This document shows, piece after piece, positions 7,659 through 27,264 of a stretch of DNA of 28,268 nucleotides. The stretch is from NCBI GenBank assembly GCA_964643815.1, contig CAZXUP010000002.1:1-28268 (forward strand), given 5' to 3'. The notes under the pieces are model-generated. The model had not been told where the DNA came from. It ran no database searches and saw only the letters and a list, made by a program, of their open reading frames with translations. Position 1 is the first letter of the stretch; each line of letters starts with the position of its first letter. A program made the position numbers and the translations under genes. This DNA is from an uncultured Vampirovibrionales bacterium (GTDB lineage: Bacteria > Cyanobacteriota > Vampirovibrionia > Vampirovibrionales > Vampirovibrionaceae).

Positions 7659-9896
7659 ATGACCGACACTCTCAACCTCACCAACGCCCTTGGCATCATT
7701 CGGAAAAAACTCCGCCTTATCTCCCTTGTTACCCTGATCGTGTTTGGTTGGGGCCTCCTCTATGTCGCCACCATGTACACGCCAAAATACGAATCCAAGG
7801 CGCGTCTCTGGATTAAGCAAATCAACCAGATTCCGTTGGTGGCCCAGATGTACGACCCTAACAGCAATCCATTGGCCCCGGTTGCCCAGGCTGGTAACCC
7901 GATTTTGACCCAAATGGAGATTTTGAAGTCGACTCAGACTTCGAAAGAACTGACCCAATTTATCAACACCCACTATCCCGAGGAAAATCCTACCGGCAAG
8001 CTGATCGATATCAACGACTACATGGACCTCAAAAACAAGGTCGGCACCGATATCATCGAAGTCCACTTCAACTGGAGCAAGCCCGAATTAGCGCAGCTTT
8101 TCCTCAAGAAGGCTCTGGAAACATACCAGGCCACTGTGACTGAAACCAACAAGGGAATCAGAAGAAAACGCCGTGAGATTATCGATCATAAAATTGTGGA
8201 AATCGAAAAAGATCTGGCGGACGTCAACCAGAAAATCAAAACCTACAAACAAGCCAACCGCATCATGACCCTGCCGATTGAAGGCGAGGAGCTGGCCCGC
8301 AGAAGAGGGGATACCGAAGCCCTTCTGGCTAAAGTCACGATGGAAAAACAGGGCGCTCTCAATAAAGCCAATGAGCTTGCGCGGCAGCTAGGGCTGAGCG
8401 GTACCCAGGGTCTCAAAAACACCGTCATCTCGTATGAGAATGTCTCATTGCTCCAGTTAGAGCAAAGTCTCAGCACCAGCATGCTGGATTATCTGGAAAA
8501 AAGGGAAATCCTCTCGGATGAGAACCCGAAACTCATTGCGCTTAAAAACAAAGTGGACTACCTCAAGAAGCAGATTCAGGATCTCCACGGCATTTACGTC
8601 AATGAAAGCCTGAAGAATAATCCGCTGACAATCTCGGATCCTGTAAAATCGGGCATGGCTGAAGAAATGGCTGCCAGCCAGGGCGAGTATATCGCACTAC
8701 GCGCCCAGGAAAATTCCCTGAGAGGAGTTTTGAGCCGGATTGGCGCCCAATATAAGCAGCTTCCGGAAAACGAATACAGTCTCAATCATTTGATGGAAAT
8801 GAAATTCGTGCTGACTGAAGCTTATAAATCGCTCAAAACCCAGCAAATTGACGCCCATTTGAATGAAGCCGAAGTGATGAGCAACATTTTTGAAGTGGAT
8901 ACACCCACCTTCGAAGAAGAGCCTGTTCCCTTGACCCAGCTTCACTATCTCATCCTCTCGCTTCTGGCCGGTGGCGCTTTAGGTCTGTTTGTCGCCATCC
9001 TTCAGCAACAGCTTGAAGATGTTTGCGAGCAAGCCAACGAAGTGGAAAACATCACCGGAAAGCCCGTGGTCGGTCGCCTGCCTTGGGTCAGGGATTTGCC
9101 ACCTTCTACAGGCCTGCCGTCTTTCAATCCGGCATATAACAACATCGTTTCCAACCTGCGTGTTCAGTCCGCGGACAAACGCTTGCAAACGCTGGTGTTT
9201 ACCTCTCCGCTGTCCGACACCGCCCGGGAATACAGCTTTGTTTACGGCATCGCCAACCAATTGGCCAGCCTGAACTATCGGGTGGCTTTGGTGGATAACG
9301 ACTTCCGGAATCCGACCTTCCTGAGCCAGTTAACCCAACCTTTCAGCCACAGCGCCACCTTGTCCGACGCGTTGTACGCCATTGAAAAACACAGCTACAA
9401 TGGCAATGGAAACGGCAATGGCGCCTCTAAAAATGGCAAAAAGACGCTTACCGCCGTCGGCGTGCTCGAAGCCGTATCCAGCAATGGACAGGCTTTGGCC
9501 GAAGCCGTCTACAGCAACGGTAATGGCAATGGAAACGGCACAGCCTCCTTCCGGGTTGAATCCTACGCCCATAAAGTGTCGGATAGCCTGCACGTATTCG
9601 GCAACATGAACTCGCTGGAAGATCCGTACAAATACTTCAATTCACAGGCCTACAATACCTTCATCGAAAAGCTGAAGGCCGAGTACGACTGGGTCATTGT
9701 CGATGCTCCAATCGACTATTCCGCACCCGAGTTTCCGATCATCGCCAGATTGTCGGACGGCGTGATGCTGATGGTCAATTACCAGATCAAAAAGGCCAAA
9801 CTGAAAGAAATCATGTCTCTTCTGCAAGAATGGGATGTCAACTTCCTGGGTTCCGTTGTGCGAGAAGAAGGTGTCCTGGAAAGCGTCAGAATTTAA
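7659..9896 (+). CDS. wzc: Wzc/GumC-type polysaccharide co-polymerase with a degenerate tyrosine-kinase-like C-terminal domain
   Basis: N-terminal TM plus PKYESKARL, long coiled-coil region, second TM, then a P-loop-like domain with Walker A' VDNDFRNP and Walker B VIVDAP. Walker A position reads TSPLSDTAREYS. Confidence 0.88.
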   Translation: MTDTLNLTNALGIIRKKLRLISLVTLIVFGWGLLYVATMYTPKYESKARLWIKQINQIPLVAQMYDPNSNPLAPVAQAGNPILTQMEILKSTQTSKELTQFINTHYPEENPTGKLIDINDYMDLKNKVGTDIIEVHFNWSKPELAQLFLKKALETYQATVTETNKGIRRKRREIIDHKIVEIEKDLADVNQKIKTYKQANRIMTLPIEGEELARRRGDTEALLAKVTMEKQGALNKANELARQLGLSGTQGLKNTVISYENVSLLQLEQSLSTSMLDYLEKREILSDENPKLIALKNKVDYLKKQIQDLHGIYVNESLKNNPLTISDPVKSGMAEEMAASQGEYIALRAQENSLRGVLSRIGAQYKQLPENEYSLNHLMEMKFVLTEAYKSLKTQQIDAHLNEAEVMSNIFEVDTPTFEEEPVPLTQLHYLILSLLAGGALGLFVAILQQQLEDVCEQANEVENITGKPVVGRLPWVRDLPPSTGLPSFNPAYNNIVSNLRVQSADKRLQTLVFTSPLSDTAREYSFVYGIANQLASLNYRVALVDNDFRNPTFLSQLTQPFSHSATLSDALYAIEKHSYNGNGNGNGASKNGKKTLTAVGVLEAVSSNGQALAEAVYSNGNGNGNGTASFRVESYAHKVSDSLHVFGNMNSLEDPYKYFNSQAYNTFIEKLKAEYDWVIVDAPIDYSAPEFPIIARLSDGVMLMVNYQIKKAKLKEIMSLLQEWDVNFLGSVVREEGVLESVRI

Positions 9897-22549: not shown

Positions 22550-23176
22550 CTACGGGTGCGGCTTTTCAGCGCCACTCATCATGTGCTGAGCCATCATGAT
22601 ACCGGCGGTACCGACCAGGGCGCCGCCCATAAAGCTGCAAACCGCGGTGGAAGCCAGCATGGTGCCGCCCATTGCGAGCGCCGCCGGTGCGTTATCTCGT
22701 AGAATGCCGCCCATTTGCTGAACCGCCTGCCTGGCGCCCGTTCCCATATCACGCATGATTTGCATCATGGGTTGAGGGCTTTGAAGCGCGGAAGTCGCAT
22801 ATTGCATGACTGGTAGCTGCATTACTGGCGGTCGCATAGCCATATAGCCCGCGTTACCACTGTTGATGCCATTCCACATACTGCCAAACAGTCCGGCGGA
22901 AGCCTGCCCCAAACCAGTCAAGGCAGATTGGCCGAACGAAAACATATTTCCGGCAAATTGGGTCATCGGGGCCATCCAGTTGCCCCATCCCGCACTCGGA
23001 GCAGGCGCCTGTGAAAATAAAGTCATTTGAGGCTGAGCGCCATAACCATAAGAAGCTTGCACGCCATACGAGGAAGGCAGCATGTTTTGCGCAAGCGGGG
23101 TTATCGAATACGCCGCAGGCTGTTGCATCATCGTGTATTGGGGTCTGTACGCAAAAACACTATTCAGCATCATCAT
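22550..23176 (-). CDS. Hypothetical low-complexity Met/Gln/Gly/Ser/Ala-rich protein (~208 aa) with a hydrophobic Gly-rich C-terminus
   Basis: ORF track gives 22550-23224. AGAGGA Shine-Dalgarno precedes ATG ATG ATG at 23176, suggesting this start. Long open frame with strongly biased composition. Confidence 0.7.
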   Translation of the reverse strand: MMMLNSVFAYRPQYTMMQQPAAYSITPLAQNMLPSSYGVQASYGYGAQPQMTLFSQAPAPSAGWGNWMAPMTQFAGNMFSFGQSALTGLGQASAGLFGSMWNGINSGNAGYMAMRPPVMQLPVMQYATSALQSPQPMMQIMRDMGTGARQAVQQMGGILRDNAPAALAMGGTMLASTAVCSFMGGALVGTAGIMMAQHMMSGAEKPHP

Positions 23177-23347
23177 GCAATTCCTCTGCTCTATTGCTTG
23201 CCTAAAGGCAGACCCTTTGAACACATCACAGGGTAATCAGCCTATTTAATATCATTCTGATATATAAAATAAGGCTTCCAGAAGTCATAAATTGCCTATA
23301 ATATTACAAATACGTTACATTAATTCCAATCCAGCAAGGACGTAAGC

Positions 23348-23902
23348 TCAGTATTGCAAGCCTCTTTGGCGAATTCCCCGGGCAAGACCCGGAATCATTT
23401 TGCTTTTAAACGTCTGAATCATATCGATTTCCTCACTGGACAAGCCTCCCGGATGAGATGAAGGCATCTTTCTCACCCTGGGAAACGGTTTACTGCTGAC
23501 AACCCCATGAAGTCGCCGTCGGTTGGCCTCCGCCTGGCAAACAGGGATTTTATAAGCAAAGGCATCCGCCGCAACATGAAAATCCTCCAGCACAATCGCC
23601 AGCCGTTCAGCCCGTTCTTCCAGTCCGGTTGTTTCACACAGCTTTTTAGCGACCCGGATGGCCAGATTCAAGCGAACCCAATAGGCAACCCCCGGATGCC
23701 GCAAGCCTTCCATCATCGCCAGCCGCACATGATGCCCCGAGAAGGCTGGCTGGCTCCCCTCATTTCCCCGGGGAGCCAGGCGGTAAATTTTGAGAAACGA
23801 GCAACGGCTATCGGCATCCATCGCTTCCAGGATTGCCAGAAAGCGTTGCGCTCGTCTGTTTTTACCCGCCTGGCTTGTCATCCCCTTCCTCACTCTCTTC
23901 AT
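23348..23902 (-). CDS. Hypothetical protein, probably co-transcribed with the flavodoxin
   Basis: 184-codon ORF starting 6 nt after the flavodoxin stop (TAA TGAAGG ATG). No recognisable motif. Confidence 0.55.
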   Translation of the reverse strand: MKRVRKGMTSQAGKNRRAQRFLAILEAMDADSRCSFLKIYRLAPRGNEGSQPAFSGHHVRLAMMEGLRHPGVAYWVRLNLAIRVAKKLCETTGLEERAERLAIVLEDFHVAADAFAYKIPVCQAEANRRRLHGVVSSKPFPRVRKMPSSHPGGLSSEEIDMIQTFKSKMIPGLARGIRQRGLQY

Positions 23903-23908
23903 CCTTCA

Positions 23909-24373
23909 TTAAGCGCTAATGGGCTGTTGCAGACCCAGTGCATTGATAACCCCCTGCAGCCACTGATCGGAAGCCGCGTCATACTCCCAATCGCATTCCT
24001 GCATCGGAAAAACACGCTTTGCGCCCTGGCTTTCCAACGCTTCGTCAAAGTCCTTGCCGCACTTGCAAAAGGCCGGGTACGACGTATCGCCCAATGCACA
24101 GACACTAAAAGAGACGCCGCTGAGATCGACTTTCTGGGTTTGCAACTCACCCAGCAGATCGTAGGCGTTGGACGGCGGGTCCCCATCGCCCCAGGTGCTG
24201 GTGACAATCAAGACCCGGCTGTAGTTTGCCAACTGCGCCAGTTTGATATCGGCCATATCAATCGACTGAGCCTGAAAGCCCTGCGCCTTCAGTTTCACTT
24301 CAGCCATATCCGCCACACCCTGGGCATTGCCGGTTTCAGAACCCCATAGAATCGCAATCGTATCACTTGCCAT
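23909..24373 (-). CDS. Short-chain flavodoxin (MioC/CysJ-flavodoxin-domain type)
   Basis: WGSETGNAQ (FMN phosphate loop), TSTWGDGDPP, ALGDTSYPAFC. AGAGGA Shine-Dalgarno. Confidence 0.95.
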   Translation of the reverse strand: MASDTIAILWGSETGNAQGVADMAEVKLKAQGFQAQSIDMADIKLAQLANYSRVLIVTSTWGDGDPPSNAYDLLGELQTQKVDLSGVSFSVCALGDTSYPAFCKCGKDFDEALESQGAKRVFPMQECDWEYDAASDQWLQGVINALGLQQPISA

Positions 24374-24463
24374 CTGTTTGTTCCTCTTTCGTGTTCAATG
24401 TCATAAAAAAGCCGCGGCCGCCGCATGCACAGCCACACTGATATCCAAAAGACAATTCGAAGA

Positions 24464-24522
24464 ATAGCCTATTGAGAATTATTATCAATTGCCAGTATAG
24501 CCTATTGAGAATATTTATCAAT
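24464..24522. promoter_or_regulatory. Two tandem Fur-box-like operators within 26-bp direct repeats (33-bp period)
   Basis: ATAGCCTATTGAGAATTATTATCAAT (24464-24489) and ATAGCCTATTGAGAATATTTATCAAT (24497-24522), 24/26 identical. Cores TGAGAAT-T-ATTATCA and TGAGAAT-A-TTTATCA differ by 1 and 2 bases from the 7-1-7 Fur consensus TGATAAT-N-ATTATCA. Confidence 0.75.
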
Positions 24523-24639
24523 AAGCTTTCTCAAAGAACATCATTTTTTCCTCTGAACACAGTAGAGCACCCTCTCTCGAATCGAACTCAACGATTCAAA
24601 TAGTTCGCTGTATGATGAATGGGAGAGGAGGATGATTTT

Positions 24640-25752
24640 GTGCAGACGATTTCCAAAACAATTCACCCCAGGGAGTACGATGACGTAAAAACCGTGGTGG
24701 AAAACGTGCAGAAGGGGAACCTGCAACACGCCAAAGCGCTGTTACAACAATTAAACGCCACCGCATCCAATCGGGATTCCGCCGCCGCCATCCAGCAGGC
24801 CTTTTTTGTAAACGCGCTTGCCAAAAGGGTTTCGGAACCTTCCGTTGAAAGCCAGAACCTCTATTTGCAAGGCGATGAGGGGCAGCAAATCAAAATGTTC
24901 AATTTCATGGCCGAAAAGTTTCCGGTTGTGAAAGCCGCACAGGAAATCGCCAACCAGGTTCTGGTTTCCCAACTCAAACAAAACCACCCCAATCAAAGCC
25001 TGACGATTTTGGACATTGGCATCGGCACCGGCCAGCAAATGATCAGTCTGCTCGAAACCATTCATCGGGAAACCGATTTTGCACGACCGATTACCATTAT
25101 TGGCATTGAACCTGCCGCAGACAGCCTGGAATTGGCCGAGAAGCGCATTAGCGGATTGAATGCGCAAGCACCGGCGCCCATCACCTTTAAAGGCATCCAC
25201 AAAACCTTTGAAGCCGTGGATGAAAACGACTGGGCCACAATCCGGCAAACCGTCGAAGAAACAGGCAGCCGGATTTACATCAACGCCTCGTTCGCCTTGC
25301 ATCATATTCAACCCGTCAGCTTGCGCGAAACATTGTTCTCCCGTCTTAAAAGCTTTAATCCGCTGGCGTTTACGCTCATCGAACCCTATGCGGATTATAT
25401 CAACCCGGATTTGCAAACCCGCTTCAACAATGCCTGGCACCATTACGGATTAACCTTTAAGGCCATTGATTCGATTGATGCGCCGACGGAAGATAAAAAT
25501 GCCGTCAAGAGAATTTTCTTTGGCCGGGAAATCCAGGATGTGCTGGCCCACGATCAGCTTCGGGTTGAGCAGTTTGAAACCGCCGAGATGTGGCTTGAAA
25601 AACTGCAAAAAGCCGGTTTTACCCCTATCGATCTGAACGCCGGAACAACCACCCAAAACGCGTATCCGCTCATCAGCATCAGCCAACGCTCCCATTATCT
25701 GGGCCTGGATGTTGAAGGCTATCCGATTGTGGCGGTGCTGTCGGTTCAGTAG
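24640..25752 (+). CDS. Bacterial GRAS-domain protein (Rossmann-fold SAM methyltransferase-like); GTG start at 24640 preferred over ATG at 24619
   Basis: P-x-x-K-x-A-x-x-x-ANQ (PVVKAAQEIANQ), VHIID-equivalent LTILDIGIGTGQQ, ITIIGIE, INASFALHHI, PFYRE-like PLAFTLIEPYAD...RFNNAWHHYGLTFKAID, SAW-like RVEQFETAEMWLEKLQKAGF. GAGGAGG Shine-Dalgarno lies ~7 nt before the GTG. Confidence 0.88.
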   Translation: MQTISKTIHPREYDDVKTVVENVQKGNLQHAKALLQQLNATASNRDSAAAIQQAFFVNALAKRVSEPSVESQNLYLQGDEGQQIKMFNFMAEKFPVVKAAQEIANQVLVSQLKQNHPNQSLTILDIGIGTGQQMISLLETIHRETDFARPITIIGIEPAADSLELAEKRISGLNAQAPAPITFKGIHKTFEAVDENDWATIRQTVEETGSRIYINASFALHHIQPVSLRETLFSRLKSFNPLAFTLIEPYADYINPDLQTRFNNAWHHYGLTFKAIDSIDAPTEDKNAVKRIFFGREIQDVLAHDQLRVEQFETAEMWLEKLQKAGFTPIDLNAGTTTQNAYPLISISQRSHYLGLDVEGYPIVAVLSVQ

Positions 25753-27264
25753 TCAGAAAGGCATATTTGCGCAGGCCCGTTTCCAATCCGCGCGATAGGC
25801 TGCGGGCAGTTTGCCAAACCATCGCAAAAACGCGCCCGGTGCAATCAATTCGTAGACGGCATCCAGCGGCTTAACCTCTGTCACACTCACACGCTTTTGC
25901 ACATGCCATGGCCGAAGCGCGTTGGGATGCTCCAACCCGGCAATGGCCAGCAGTTCGTAAAACTCCTGCGTGGTAATGGCATGATAGTGATAGGCTTTTT
26001 GGGCGGTTCCATCAATATCCAGCAGATTGGCATAATGGCTGTCCTGCGTCGCAATGCCTTTCAGGCAGGTTCCTTTATAGCATTCCAGTTGCTGATCGCA
26101 TCCGATTGACAGCAACATTCCCCGCGCCGTCGAACACACATCCGCGCCTCTGGCCAGCTTGGAGATCATGTCTTTTTCCGTAAACACACGACCGGACACG
26201 ATAATCTTGATGGCATCCCGCAAGTTGCAACCCACCAATGCGTTGTGCACAAAGACAATCGCGTCATTGAGCGGCGTGCCGGTAAAACCCGAAGCCCCTT
26301 TAGAGGCCGCCGCGGTTCCCGCCTCCATGCCGTCAATGGTAATAAAGTCCATCACAATGCCTGTTTTGAGCATGGCCTTGCAAATGGCCAGAAAATAATG
26401 ACGATGGCTGATTCCCAGTTTAATGCCGATGGGCTTGCCGTCACTCCGTTCGCGTAGCTCCCGAATAAAATCCAGCAATTCGATGGGCGTGGCAAAACAC
26501 GTGTGTCGGTCTTTCAACACGGCCTCATCCGCGTCTTGAATCCCCATCATATTGGCAATGGCAGGCAGCATGCCCTTAGCAGGCAAAATCTTACAAGGTT
26601 CTACCCCCTGGGAAAGCTTCACTTCGATCATTTTGACGTTTGGGATACGCACCTTCTTTTGAAACGCAACGGGATCGAAATCGCCGTTCTCGTCCCGACA
26701 ACCAAAATAACCGGTTCCCAACTGCCAAACCACATCACCCGCCCGGTTGGATTCCGGGTAACGTCCATCGACCAAATCCTCCAAAAAAGCACCAAAGTTG
26801 AAAGAGGGGTCTCCCATATCCACGTCCGTACCAAAATGATAGGTGCTGATGCCCGCCTCCCCCGTGTTCTGGAAAAAACCTCCCAGAAACGCGGCTTTGT
26901 TCAGCGCCAGAATCGCGTTTCTGGACAAGGGGCCAAAGCTGAGGGCCGAACAGTTTAAAACCGAAGCATTGTACGGTTGCTTACAATCCGGCCCGCCGAT
27001 ACGAACCTTGGGCAAATCTTTGGGCAGGGGCTTTTTAAAGTAGGCCGGTAACAGAGATTCGTACCCAACCGCCTCCACATCCGCTTCCGAACCAAACACC
27101 TCGGGCAACCGAAGACCGGATGCCCGCTCCCCGATCAGCCGGGCCGTGCTTTCCGGAACAGGCCCCTTCCTGCTCGTCTTGATTGGCGGAACACTATAAA
27201 AGCCGCCAGGAATCAAACTACCCAGCGTGGAGACACCTATGATCTTATTCCGCACATCTGTCAC
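25753..27264 (-). CDS. Stand-alone FMN-binding glutamate-synthase-family (Glu_synthase TIM barrel, Fe-S) protein
   Basis: LNCSALSFG, NTGEAG, VWQLGTGYFGCR, MIEVKLSQG, KPIGIKL, DFITIDGMEAGT, three-Cys cluster GCDQQLECYKGTCLKGIATQD. No glutamine amidotransferase domain. Confidence 0.88.
   Translation of the reverse strand: MTDVRNKIIGVSTLGSLIPGGFYSVPPIKTSRKGPVPESTARLIGERASGLRLPEVFGSEADVEAVGYESLLPAYFKKPLPKDLPKVRIGGPDCKQPYNASVLNCSALSFGPLSRNAILALNKAAFLGGFFQNTGEAGISTYHFGTDVDMGDPSFNFGAFLEDLVDGRYPESNRAGDVVWQLGTGYFGCRDENGDFDPVAFQKKVRIPNVKMIEVKLSQGVEPCKILPAKGMLPAIANMMGIQDADEAVLKDRHTCFATPIELLDFIRELRERSDGKPIGIKLGISHRHYFLAICKAMLKTGIVMDFITIDGMEAGTAAASKGASGFTGTPLNDAIVFVHNALVGCNLRDAIKIIVSGRVFTEKDMISKLARGADVCSTARGMLLSIGCDQQLECYKGTCLKGIATQDSHYANLLDIDGTAQKAYHYHAITTQEFYELLAIAGLEHPNALRPWHVQKRVSVTEVKPLDAVYELIAPGAFLRWFGKLPAAYRADWKRACANMPF

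Follow-up and report, generated by a model that had tools for sequence, protein, structure and literature searches.

What does a GRAS protein, a relative of the plant co-regulators DELLA and SCR, do in a bacterium of the order Vampirovibrionales? The question is raised by a 28,268-nucleotide (nt) stretch of DNA, hereafter the window, which is the entire contig C2 of a metagenome-assembled genome (2.8 Mb in 388 contigs, 93.7% complete) and which encodes such a protein. An earlier note made from the sequence had described the domain as plant-type with intact S-adenosylmethionine (SAM) binding motifs, and had attached to it a special evolutionary significance and a possible host-directed role. 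We found that the gene is a genuine but ordinary member of the known bacterial GRAS family. Its conserved motifs indicate that it very probably encodes an active SAM-dependent methyltransferase. We lean towards the reading that this enzyme acts on a small molecule, a 2-oxo-, 2-hydroxy- or 2-amino-carboxylic acid, within a three-gene module that also includes a glutamate-synthase-like (GltS-like) protein and a histidine kinase.

Membership in the GRAS family was examined with the Pfam model PF03514, which matched the protein with E = 8.4e-40 (137.3 bits, cut-off 27) over profile positions 7-338 of 374; a profile search of the whole genome returned the identical result. Generic class I methyltransferase families gave weak matches, those of the UbiE/MenG type ranging from E = 1e-4 to 0.035, and none of the NCBIfam models came near its cut-off against this protein. 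A phmmer search of the PDB sequences matched the GRAS domains of plant DELLA, RGA, SCL3, SCR, NSP2 and SCL7, with DELLA as the best plant match (E = 1.5e-18, 70 bits, residues 26-346). Over these residues the HMMER alignment places the VHIID, LH/PFYRE and SAW-region blocks collinearly with those of DELLA, the paired blocks being ILDIG with VIDFG, N..F.LH with N..F.LH, RF with RF, and R.E..ET...W with R.E..ET...W. The AlphaFold2 model, built with 49 bacterial homologues as input (mean predicted local distance difference test score of 91.8), predicts five N-terminal helices followed by a seven-stranded Rossmann-type core. This combination of a helical cap and an alpha/beta Rossmann-like core is superposable on the solved GRAS domains. 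The profile search and the predicted structure thus confirm the earlier assignment of a GRAS domain with recognizable subregions.

The intact open reading frame (ORF) spans positions 24619-25752 of the forward strand, and an in-frame ATG at 24619 would give a protein of 377 amino acids (aa); residues are numbered throughout in this frame. Translation most probably begins at GTG 24640, because this codon follows a GGAGG sequence at a distance of 8 nt, coincides with the start of the public gene call (370 aa) and lines up with the N-termini of homologues in the alignment. The protein begins 16 residues ahead of the modeled fold, and a signal peptide, an extension and an extra domain are all absent from it. 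The stretch was found in three DNA metagenome runs, all from one study, and there is no RNA dataset among the listed datasets that carry it.

Conservation of the SAM-binding positions was counted in the 49 bacterial homologues, which are 30-85% identical to the GRAS protein. The glycine-rich loop after strand 1, D132-I-G-I-G-T-G138, has the D/E-x-G-x-G-x-G form of class I methyltransferases; D132, G134 and G136 are invariant, while G138 is kept in 47 of the 49 sequences. In the HMMER alignment, LTILDIGIGTG falls on the plant VHVIDFGLKQG and IIGIEP on LTGIGP. As in class I methyltransferases, strand 2 (residues 158-163 in the model) ends in an acidic residue, E164, for which a ribose-binding role is suggested by analogy, Asp77 of CysG being a precedent (PMC11408123). 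E198, after strand 3, occupies a putative adenine-binding position. The end of strand 4 (residues 218-224 in the model) leads into the invariant pair H228-H229, a candidate site that may hold a metal or a substrate carboxylate, and E255, H275 and further positions are invariant as well. In contrast, DELLA has K, G, R and T where the bacterial protein has G136, E164, E198 and H229. Both the conservation counts and these substitutions uphold the claim that SAM-binding motifs lost in plant GRAS proteins are intact here. The retained motif set is a trait of the whole bacterial GRAS branch and not of the Vampirovibrionales copy alone.

These counts also bear on a rival idea, in which the protein, like most plant GRAS proteins, would bind a small molecule or a protein partner with no methyl transfer and, as a sensor or regulator, feed the adjacent histidine kinase. 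Since G136, E164 and E198 are lost in plants and kept in the bacterial sequences, their retention is hard to explain without SAM binding, although SAM binding with no turnover may account for it as well. We therefore regard the sensor as improbable, even though plant relatives function without catalysis, the linkage of GRAS to two-component systems is persistent, and GRAS domains fused to TerB and CBS domains occur in other bacteria.

A second set of observations concerns the gene neighborhood. The GRAS gene lies tail-to-tail with the GltS-like gene, their stop codons abutting at window positions 25750-25755. A homologue of the GltS-like gene with 46-61% identity adjoins GRAS in nine of the ten related GRAS-bearing genomes (10 of 11 when the window's own genome is counted), and among 80 GRAS loci of many phyla the gene was confined to those of Vampirovibrionales, with no instance in 74 other loci. 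When the 40 related genomes were searched, the nine best full-length matches were exactly the GRAS-adjacent genes, all of them in GRAS-bearing genomes. Weaker matches, at 42-48% identity, represent a general paralogue that occurs in genomes with and without GRAS; the paralogue of the window's own genome is located on another contig (G000:C117:5834-7612) and keeps the canonical QGAKPGHGG, GEGG and EGGTG loops. A phylogenetic tree sets the ten GRAS-adjacent copies apart from nine paralogues as a clade with a support of 100 in the Shimodaira-Hasegawa-like approximate likelihood ratio test (SH-aLRT). Within this clade the branching order matches the GRAS tree, down to a shared deep pair and three shared inner groups. 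Such mirrored trees argue that the two genes were inherited, and apparently lost, together.

All ten GRAS-linked copies keep the Cys-x5-Cys-x4-Cys cluster motif and GIATQ, and all ten share the same three altered loops, with SQGVEPxKx--LP in place of SQGAKPGHGGILP, NTGEAG in place of NTGEGG, and DGMEAGTAAAS in place of DGxEGGTGAAP. The nine paralogues, in contrast, retain the canonical forms of all three loops. The GRAS-linked copies therefore lack the Q-G-A-K-P-G-x-G-G and G-E-G-G loops of GltB proper, and no NCBIfam model reached its cut-off against the partner of the window. We consider it likely that GRAS and the GltS-like protein form a functional unit.

The third gene of the module, upstream of the GltS-like gene and in the same direction, encodes the histidine kinase. 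Homologous kinases are found no more than two genes away from GRAS in eight of the ten related loci, and REC-GerE regulators follow in the two deep-branching loci. The single GRAS genome without a GltS-like gene shows an apparent operon of kinase, REC, DUF6875 and GRAS genes. In this locus, L016 (G006:C3), the DUF6875 gene lies directly upstream of GRAS, at 9153-9854 on the minus strand.

Outside the Vampirovibrionales, the neighbors of GRAS differ. In 43 of 49 Bacteroidota loci, a HisC-like class I/II aminotransferase of ~385 aa is encoded directly 3' of GRAS on the same strand, with gaps that are at most 135 nt in all but three of the 43 cases (median ~30 nt). This protein belongs to PF00155 and scores 234 bits against TIGR01141, below the cut-off of that model. 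Both domains are also found in a single 735-aa protein (P0131), which has GRAS at residues 28-322 and Aminotran_1_2 at residues 404-732; its cluster has seven member sequences, and it was seen on three contigs. In one Paenibacillus locus, a D-2-hydroxyacid dehydrogenase gene starts 5 nt after GRAS. Directly upstream of GRAS, Bacteroidota loci often have genes for a LytTR response regulator and a large histidine kinase, and two-component genes recur beside GRAS in Vampirovibrionales, Bacteroidota and Methanoperedens. Other fusions were also observed. A C-terminal TerB domain is joined to GRAS in proteins of ~520 aa from many clusters (P0100, P0122) and in a 799-aa protein of a Myxococcales metagenome-assembled genome (L070:5059-7455), and two CBS domains are joined to GRAS in a 536-aa protein of Myxococcota (L094:5878-7485).

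In the mechanism that we propose, the GRAS protein, with its helical cap and Rossmann fold, would bind SAM and methylate a small molecule. The module, inherited as a unit, would consist of this methyltransferase, a diverged GltS-like oxidoreductase with flavin mononucleotide (FMN) and a 3Fe-4S cluster, and a cytoplasmic PAS histidine kinase. The H228-H229 pair after strand 4 may hold the carboxylate of the substrate, possibly via a metal, and the product would be made or consumed jointly with the partner enzyme. The adjacent two-component system may then sense this product or control the genes, as the recurrence of two-component genes suggests either sensing of the metabolite or regulation of the genes in response to it.

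The class of substrate is suggested by the partner enzymes. The GltS-like and HisC-like proteins both come from families that turn 2-oxo acids into amino acids, and C2 of a 2-oxo acid is the site of action common to aminotransferases, glutamate-synthase FMN domains and 2-hydroxyacid dehydrogenases, which points to a 2-oxo, 2-hydroxy or 2-amino acid as the substrate of GRAS. Taken alone, the assignment of a 2-oxo/amino-acid type of substrate is tentative. A wider generalization, which we put forward as doubtful, is that bacterial GRAS proteins are metal-assisted 2-oxo/amino-acid methyltransferases that, with an amino-acid-forming partner, make or remove a signal read by the neighboring two-component system. 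The partner in Bacteroidota would be the HisC-like aminotransferase, replaced in Vampirovibrionales by the re-tooled GltS-like flavoprotein.

A methyltransferase acting on some other substrate, such as a quinone, a lipid or the terpenoid or gibberellin-like acid proposed in 2012, with the GltS-like flavoprotein serving as a reductase on the scaffold, is rather unlikely. The UbiE/MenG-type matches, weak as they are, would agree with it, as would the absence of the canonical glutamate-synthase loop from the GltS-like partner and the mixed neighbors of GRAS in other phyla. However, no terpene synthase, P450, prenyltransferase or polyketide gene was found in the conserved neighborhoods examined, and the aminotransferase operon and fusion of Bacteroidota indicate amino or oxo acids.

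Several observations weigh against a module for 2-oxo or amino acid methylation. Gene linkage indicates a shared process and not a substrate, and our literature search returned no biochemical data on any bacterial GRAS protein. The likeness of H228-H229 to the His-His of the HHD site in CysG and BelI is one of sequence position and not of residue-level superposition. The GltS-like partner, without the typical loop residues of glutamate synthase, may not handle a 2-oxo acid. Neighbors of GRAS in other phyla are mixed and include GNAT, phosphotriesterase and ADP-ribosylglycohydrolase genes as well as the TerB or CBS fusions. Finally, GRAS and the GltS-like gene are convergent in eight of ten Vampirovibrionales loci, often with overlapping 3' ends, which implies separate promoters and possibly opposed expression.

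The arrangement of the pair was also compared between loci. The 3' ends abut in the window and overlap by 6-53 nt in five other loci (L011, L024, L025, L026 and L028), i.e. in six of the eight convergent loci altogether; this leaves no room for terminators, so that the GRAS and GltS-like mRNAs must overlap. In the two deepest-branching loci, the genes are arranged head-to-tail, the GltS-like gene followed by GRAS, with stop and start codons touching or nearly so.

Within the order, 41 genomes were searched, the window's own included, and GRAS was detected in 11 of them; the 40 relatives divide into the window's own family (7 of 24), a second family (3 of 5) and a third (0 of 11). GRAS-bearing relatives of the same family or order are labelled Vampirovibrio sp., Vampirovibrionales bacterium or Candidatus Melainabacteria, which supports the earlier placement of the host in Vampirovibrionia, and the closest labelled relatives (41-46% identity) are already named "GRAS family protein [Vampirovibrio sp.]" in NCBI. 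One metagenome-assembled genome that falls in the window's family by genome search, DATNPJ010000038.1 (L024), carries the submitter label Coleofasciculaceae cyanobacterium. This label is probably wrong, because both its GRAS and its GltS-like genes nest within the Vampirovibrionales clades.

In a profile search of 1.84 billion cluster representatives, 341 clusters passed a threshold of E <= 1e-30 and 1640 a threshold of E <= 1e-3. The best matches listed by the homology searches were all bacterial, and a search for longer proteins gave one bacterial fusion and no plant protein. A single peptide pattern recovered 169 GRAS genes from species-representative genomes, in a scan that missed four of the ten known carriers. 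Their hosts were Bacteroidota (mainly Saprospiraceae), Nostocales, Paenibacillaceae, Burkholderiales, Myxococcota and one Methanoperedens archaeon. A tree built from 79 bacterial GRAS proteins unites the 11 Vampirovibrionales copies in a single clade (SH-aLRT 100), which has no definite sister in a mixed assemblage of Cyanobacteria, Bacillota, Proteobacteria and Myxococcota.

Closeness to plant GRAS was judged by scores against PF03514, a plant-derived model, and against plant PDB chains, the tree being composed of bacterial sequences only. With PF03514, the Vampirovibrionales copy reached 137 bits, compared with 116-144 bits for ten copies of other taxa, and the Brevibacillus, Roseateles and Methanoperedens copies outscored it. 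The best plant PDB scores were 70 bits here, 70 in Brevibacillus, 65 in Roseateles, 50 in Nostoc and 47 in one Saprospiraceae copy. A degenerate SAM site, an N-terminal regulatory region and a streptophyte lineage would mark a plant-type protein, and none of them is seen here: the SAM positions are kept, the N-terminal region is missing and the protein groups inside a bacterial clade. The designation as plant-type was accordingly dropped.

Since the host order includes Vampirovibrio chlorellavorus, a predator of Chlorella, the protein could be imagined as a host-directed mimic delivered into algal prey to disturb regulation of the GRAS type, or the lineage as a donor or recipient in the transfer of GRAS from bacteria to streptophytes. 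The similarity to DELLA is clear and ranks high among the five bacterial copies that were compared, but scores against the plant-derived models are equalled or exceeded by Brevibacillus, Roseateles and Methanoperedens, and the constraint on the SAM motifs is no different from that in free-living bacteria of soil and water. The protein has neither a signal peptide nor an added domain and lies in a conserved module of enzymes and a kinase, which suits an enzyme working inside the cell better than a mimic injected into prey. The restriction of GRAS to about a quarter of the genomes searched in the order, with one family devoid of it, also speaks against such roles, as does a literature search that found no paper connecting GRAS domains with Vampirovibrio. 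We judge this explanation to be highly improbable. Plant GRAS proteins are thought to stem from a single transfer out of soil bacteria (review, PMC12448838), and nothing that we found places Vampirovibrionales near that event. Neither the host-directed role nor the special evolutionary significance proposed earlier was supported by this comparison, the plant similarity being matched by unrelated bacteria and the Vampirovibrionales clade having no definite sister.

Table 1. Coordinates of the annotated features in the window.
Feature	Position	Strand	Basis or detail
Flavodoxin gene, divergent from GRAS	23909..24373	-	PF00258, E 6e-31
Shine-Dalgarno GGAGG	24627..24631	+	8 nt 5' of GTG start; read from sequence
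Gene for GRAS-family protein, predicted SAM-dependent methyltransferase	24640..25752	+	370 aa from GTG 24640
Motif I, D132-I-G-I-G-T-G138 (VHIID equivalent), predicted glycine-rich SAM-binding loop	25012..25032	+	Conservation in 49 homologues
E164, acidic residue at end of strand 2, putative ribose-binding position of class I methyltransferases	25108..25110	+	E in 44/49, D in 5/49
E198, acidic residue after strand 3, putative adenine-binding position	25210..25212	+	Invariant, 49/49
N222-A-S-F-A-L-H228-H229, end of strand 4 and His-His pair	25282..25305	+	N222, H228 and H229 invariant
Dedicated glutamate-synthase-like FMN/Fe-S protein	25753..27264	-	PF01645, E 4.7e-54; 503 aa
PAS-HisKA-HATPase sensor histidine kinase, cut by contig end	27343..28268	-	Pfam HisKA, HATPase_c, PAS_4

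On its other side, the GRAS gene is flanked by a flavodoxin gene. It was considered as a conserved partner of GRAS and rejected, as no homologue was found in the ten related loci; in this genome, the flavodoxin could serve as an electron donor to the GltS-like protein. The spacer between the flavodoxin gene and GRAS contains, at 24461-24525, two near-identical copies of ~30 nt (TAGCCTATTGAGAAT[T/A]ATT[A/T]ATCAAT) set 33 nt apart. A promoter-like pair on the minus strand, directed towards the flavodoxin gene, overlaps each copy (TTGATA-16-TATACT and TTGATA-16-TATTCT), and the copies look like Fur-type operators for flavodoxin, not for GRAS. At 24413-24437 (minus strand), in the 5' leader of flavodoxin, a GC-rich hairpin with a T-run after it resembles a terminator. 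It sits between the promoter-like sites and the start codon at 24373 and could be an attenuator or simply a coincidental match. Two further ORFs between an acyltransferase gene and the flavodoxin gene, at 22550-23224 and 23348-23902 (both minus strand), have no Pfam match and no homologues in the ten related GRAS loci; one of them is rich in Met, Gln and Gly and nearly charge-free.

By itself, the gene adds little. GRAS methyltransferases of bacteria have been on record since 2012, occur widely and are already annotated in Vampirovibrio, and the Vampirovibrionales copy says nothing special about the way in which plants obtained GRAS. More is gained from its context: two independent conserved partnerships, together with the fusion, narrow the hunt for a substrate to 2-oxo/amino-acid chemistry. 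Our literature search found no substrate on record for any bacterial GRAS protein, and culturable carriers suitable for a direct test are available in Emticicia, Paenibacillus, Brevibacillus and Nostoc. The identity of the substrate would also be informative about the former ligand of the pocket conserved in plant GRAS proteins. If bacterial GRAS proteins do produce or remove an amino-acid-derived signal, and if they are ancestral to the plant regulators, the plant pocket would descend from a binding site for an amino-acid derivative.

Among known systems, CysG and BelI (PDB 9FCL, 9FCE) are the best non-GRAS structural neighbors of the GRAS model, with a score tied with those of many methyltransferases. 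They methylate the C1 carboxylate of 3-alkylmalates and have a His-His-Asp metal site, both histidines of which lie just after strand 4 (PMC11408123). H228-H229 of the GRAS protein sits at the corresponding sequence position, with no third ligand identified, whereas overall identity is 16% and CysG and BelI have no GRAS-type helical cap. Keto-acid C-methyltransferases of the beta-methyl amino acid pathways typically work with an aminotransferase, a pairing that parallels the GRAS-aminotransferase operon and fusion of Bacteroidota. The alpha-keto-acid C-methyltransferases SgvM, MppJ, MrsA, GlmT and MarI (PMC10502145) have a two-domain build like that of GRAS, with a helical N-domain and a Rossmann domain, and in SgvM two His ligands (H244 and H296) hold the metal that binds the keto acid (PMC10502145). 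Foldseek template modeling scores to SgvM and MppJ were low (0.35-0.46), with a large root mean square deviation. Fold rank was set aside as evidence of chemistry, since re-alignment tied SgvM and MppJ with many methyltransferases.

The GltS-like partner shares PF01645, the Cys triad and GIATQ with the FMN domain of glutamate synthase (GltB; PDB 7MFM, 1EA0, 1OFD). Unlike GltB, it is a stand-alone protein of ~500 aa with no amidotransferase domain and with three rewritten catalytic loops. Plant GRAS co-regulators (DELLA/RGA, SCL3, SCR, SHR and SCL7; PDB 9O4J, 6KPB, 5B3H, 5HYZ) have N-terminal regulatory regions and act by protein binding. In contrast, the Vampirovibrionales protein keeps all SAM positions and has no such region. 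Bacterial GRAS proteins (PF03514) have the same stand-alone size of ~360-380 aa and the same intact Rossmann SAM motif set. They were described as the catalytic type by Zhang, Iyer & Aravind 2012 (Bioinformatics 28:2407), as cited in PMC4279901, and the predicted role of a small-molecule methylase is common to them and the protein studied here. The Vampirovibrionales protein itself shows no difference from these known bacterial proteins; what may be new is the linkage of its gene, specific to this lineage, with the genes of a dedicated GltS-like protein and a PAS kinase.

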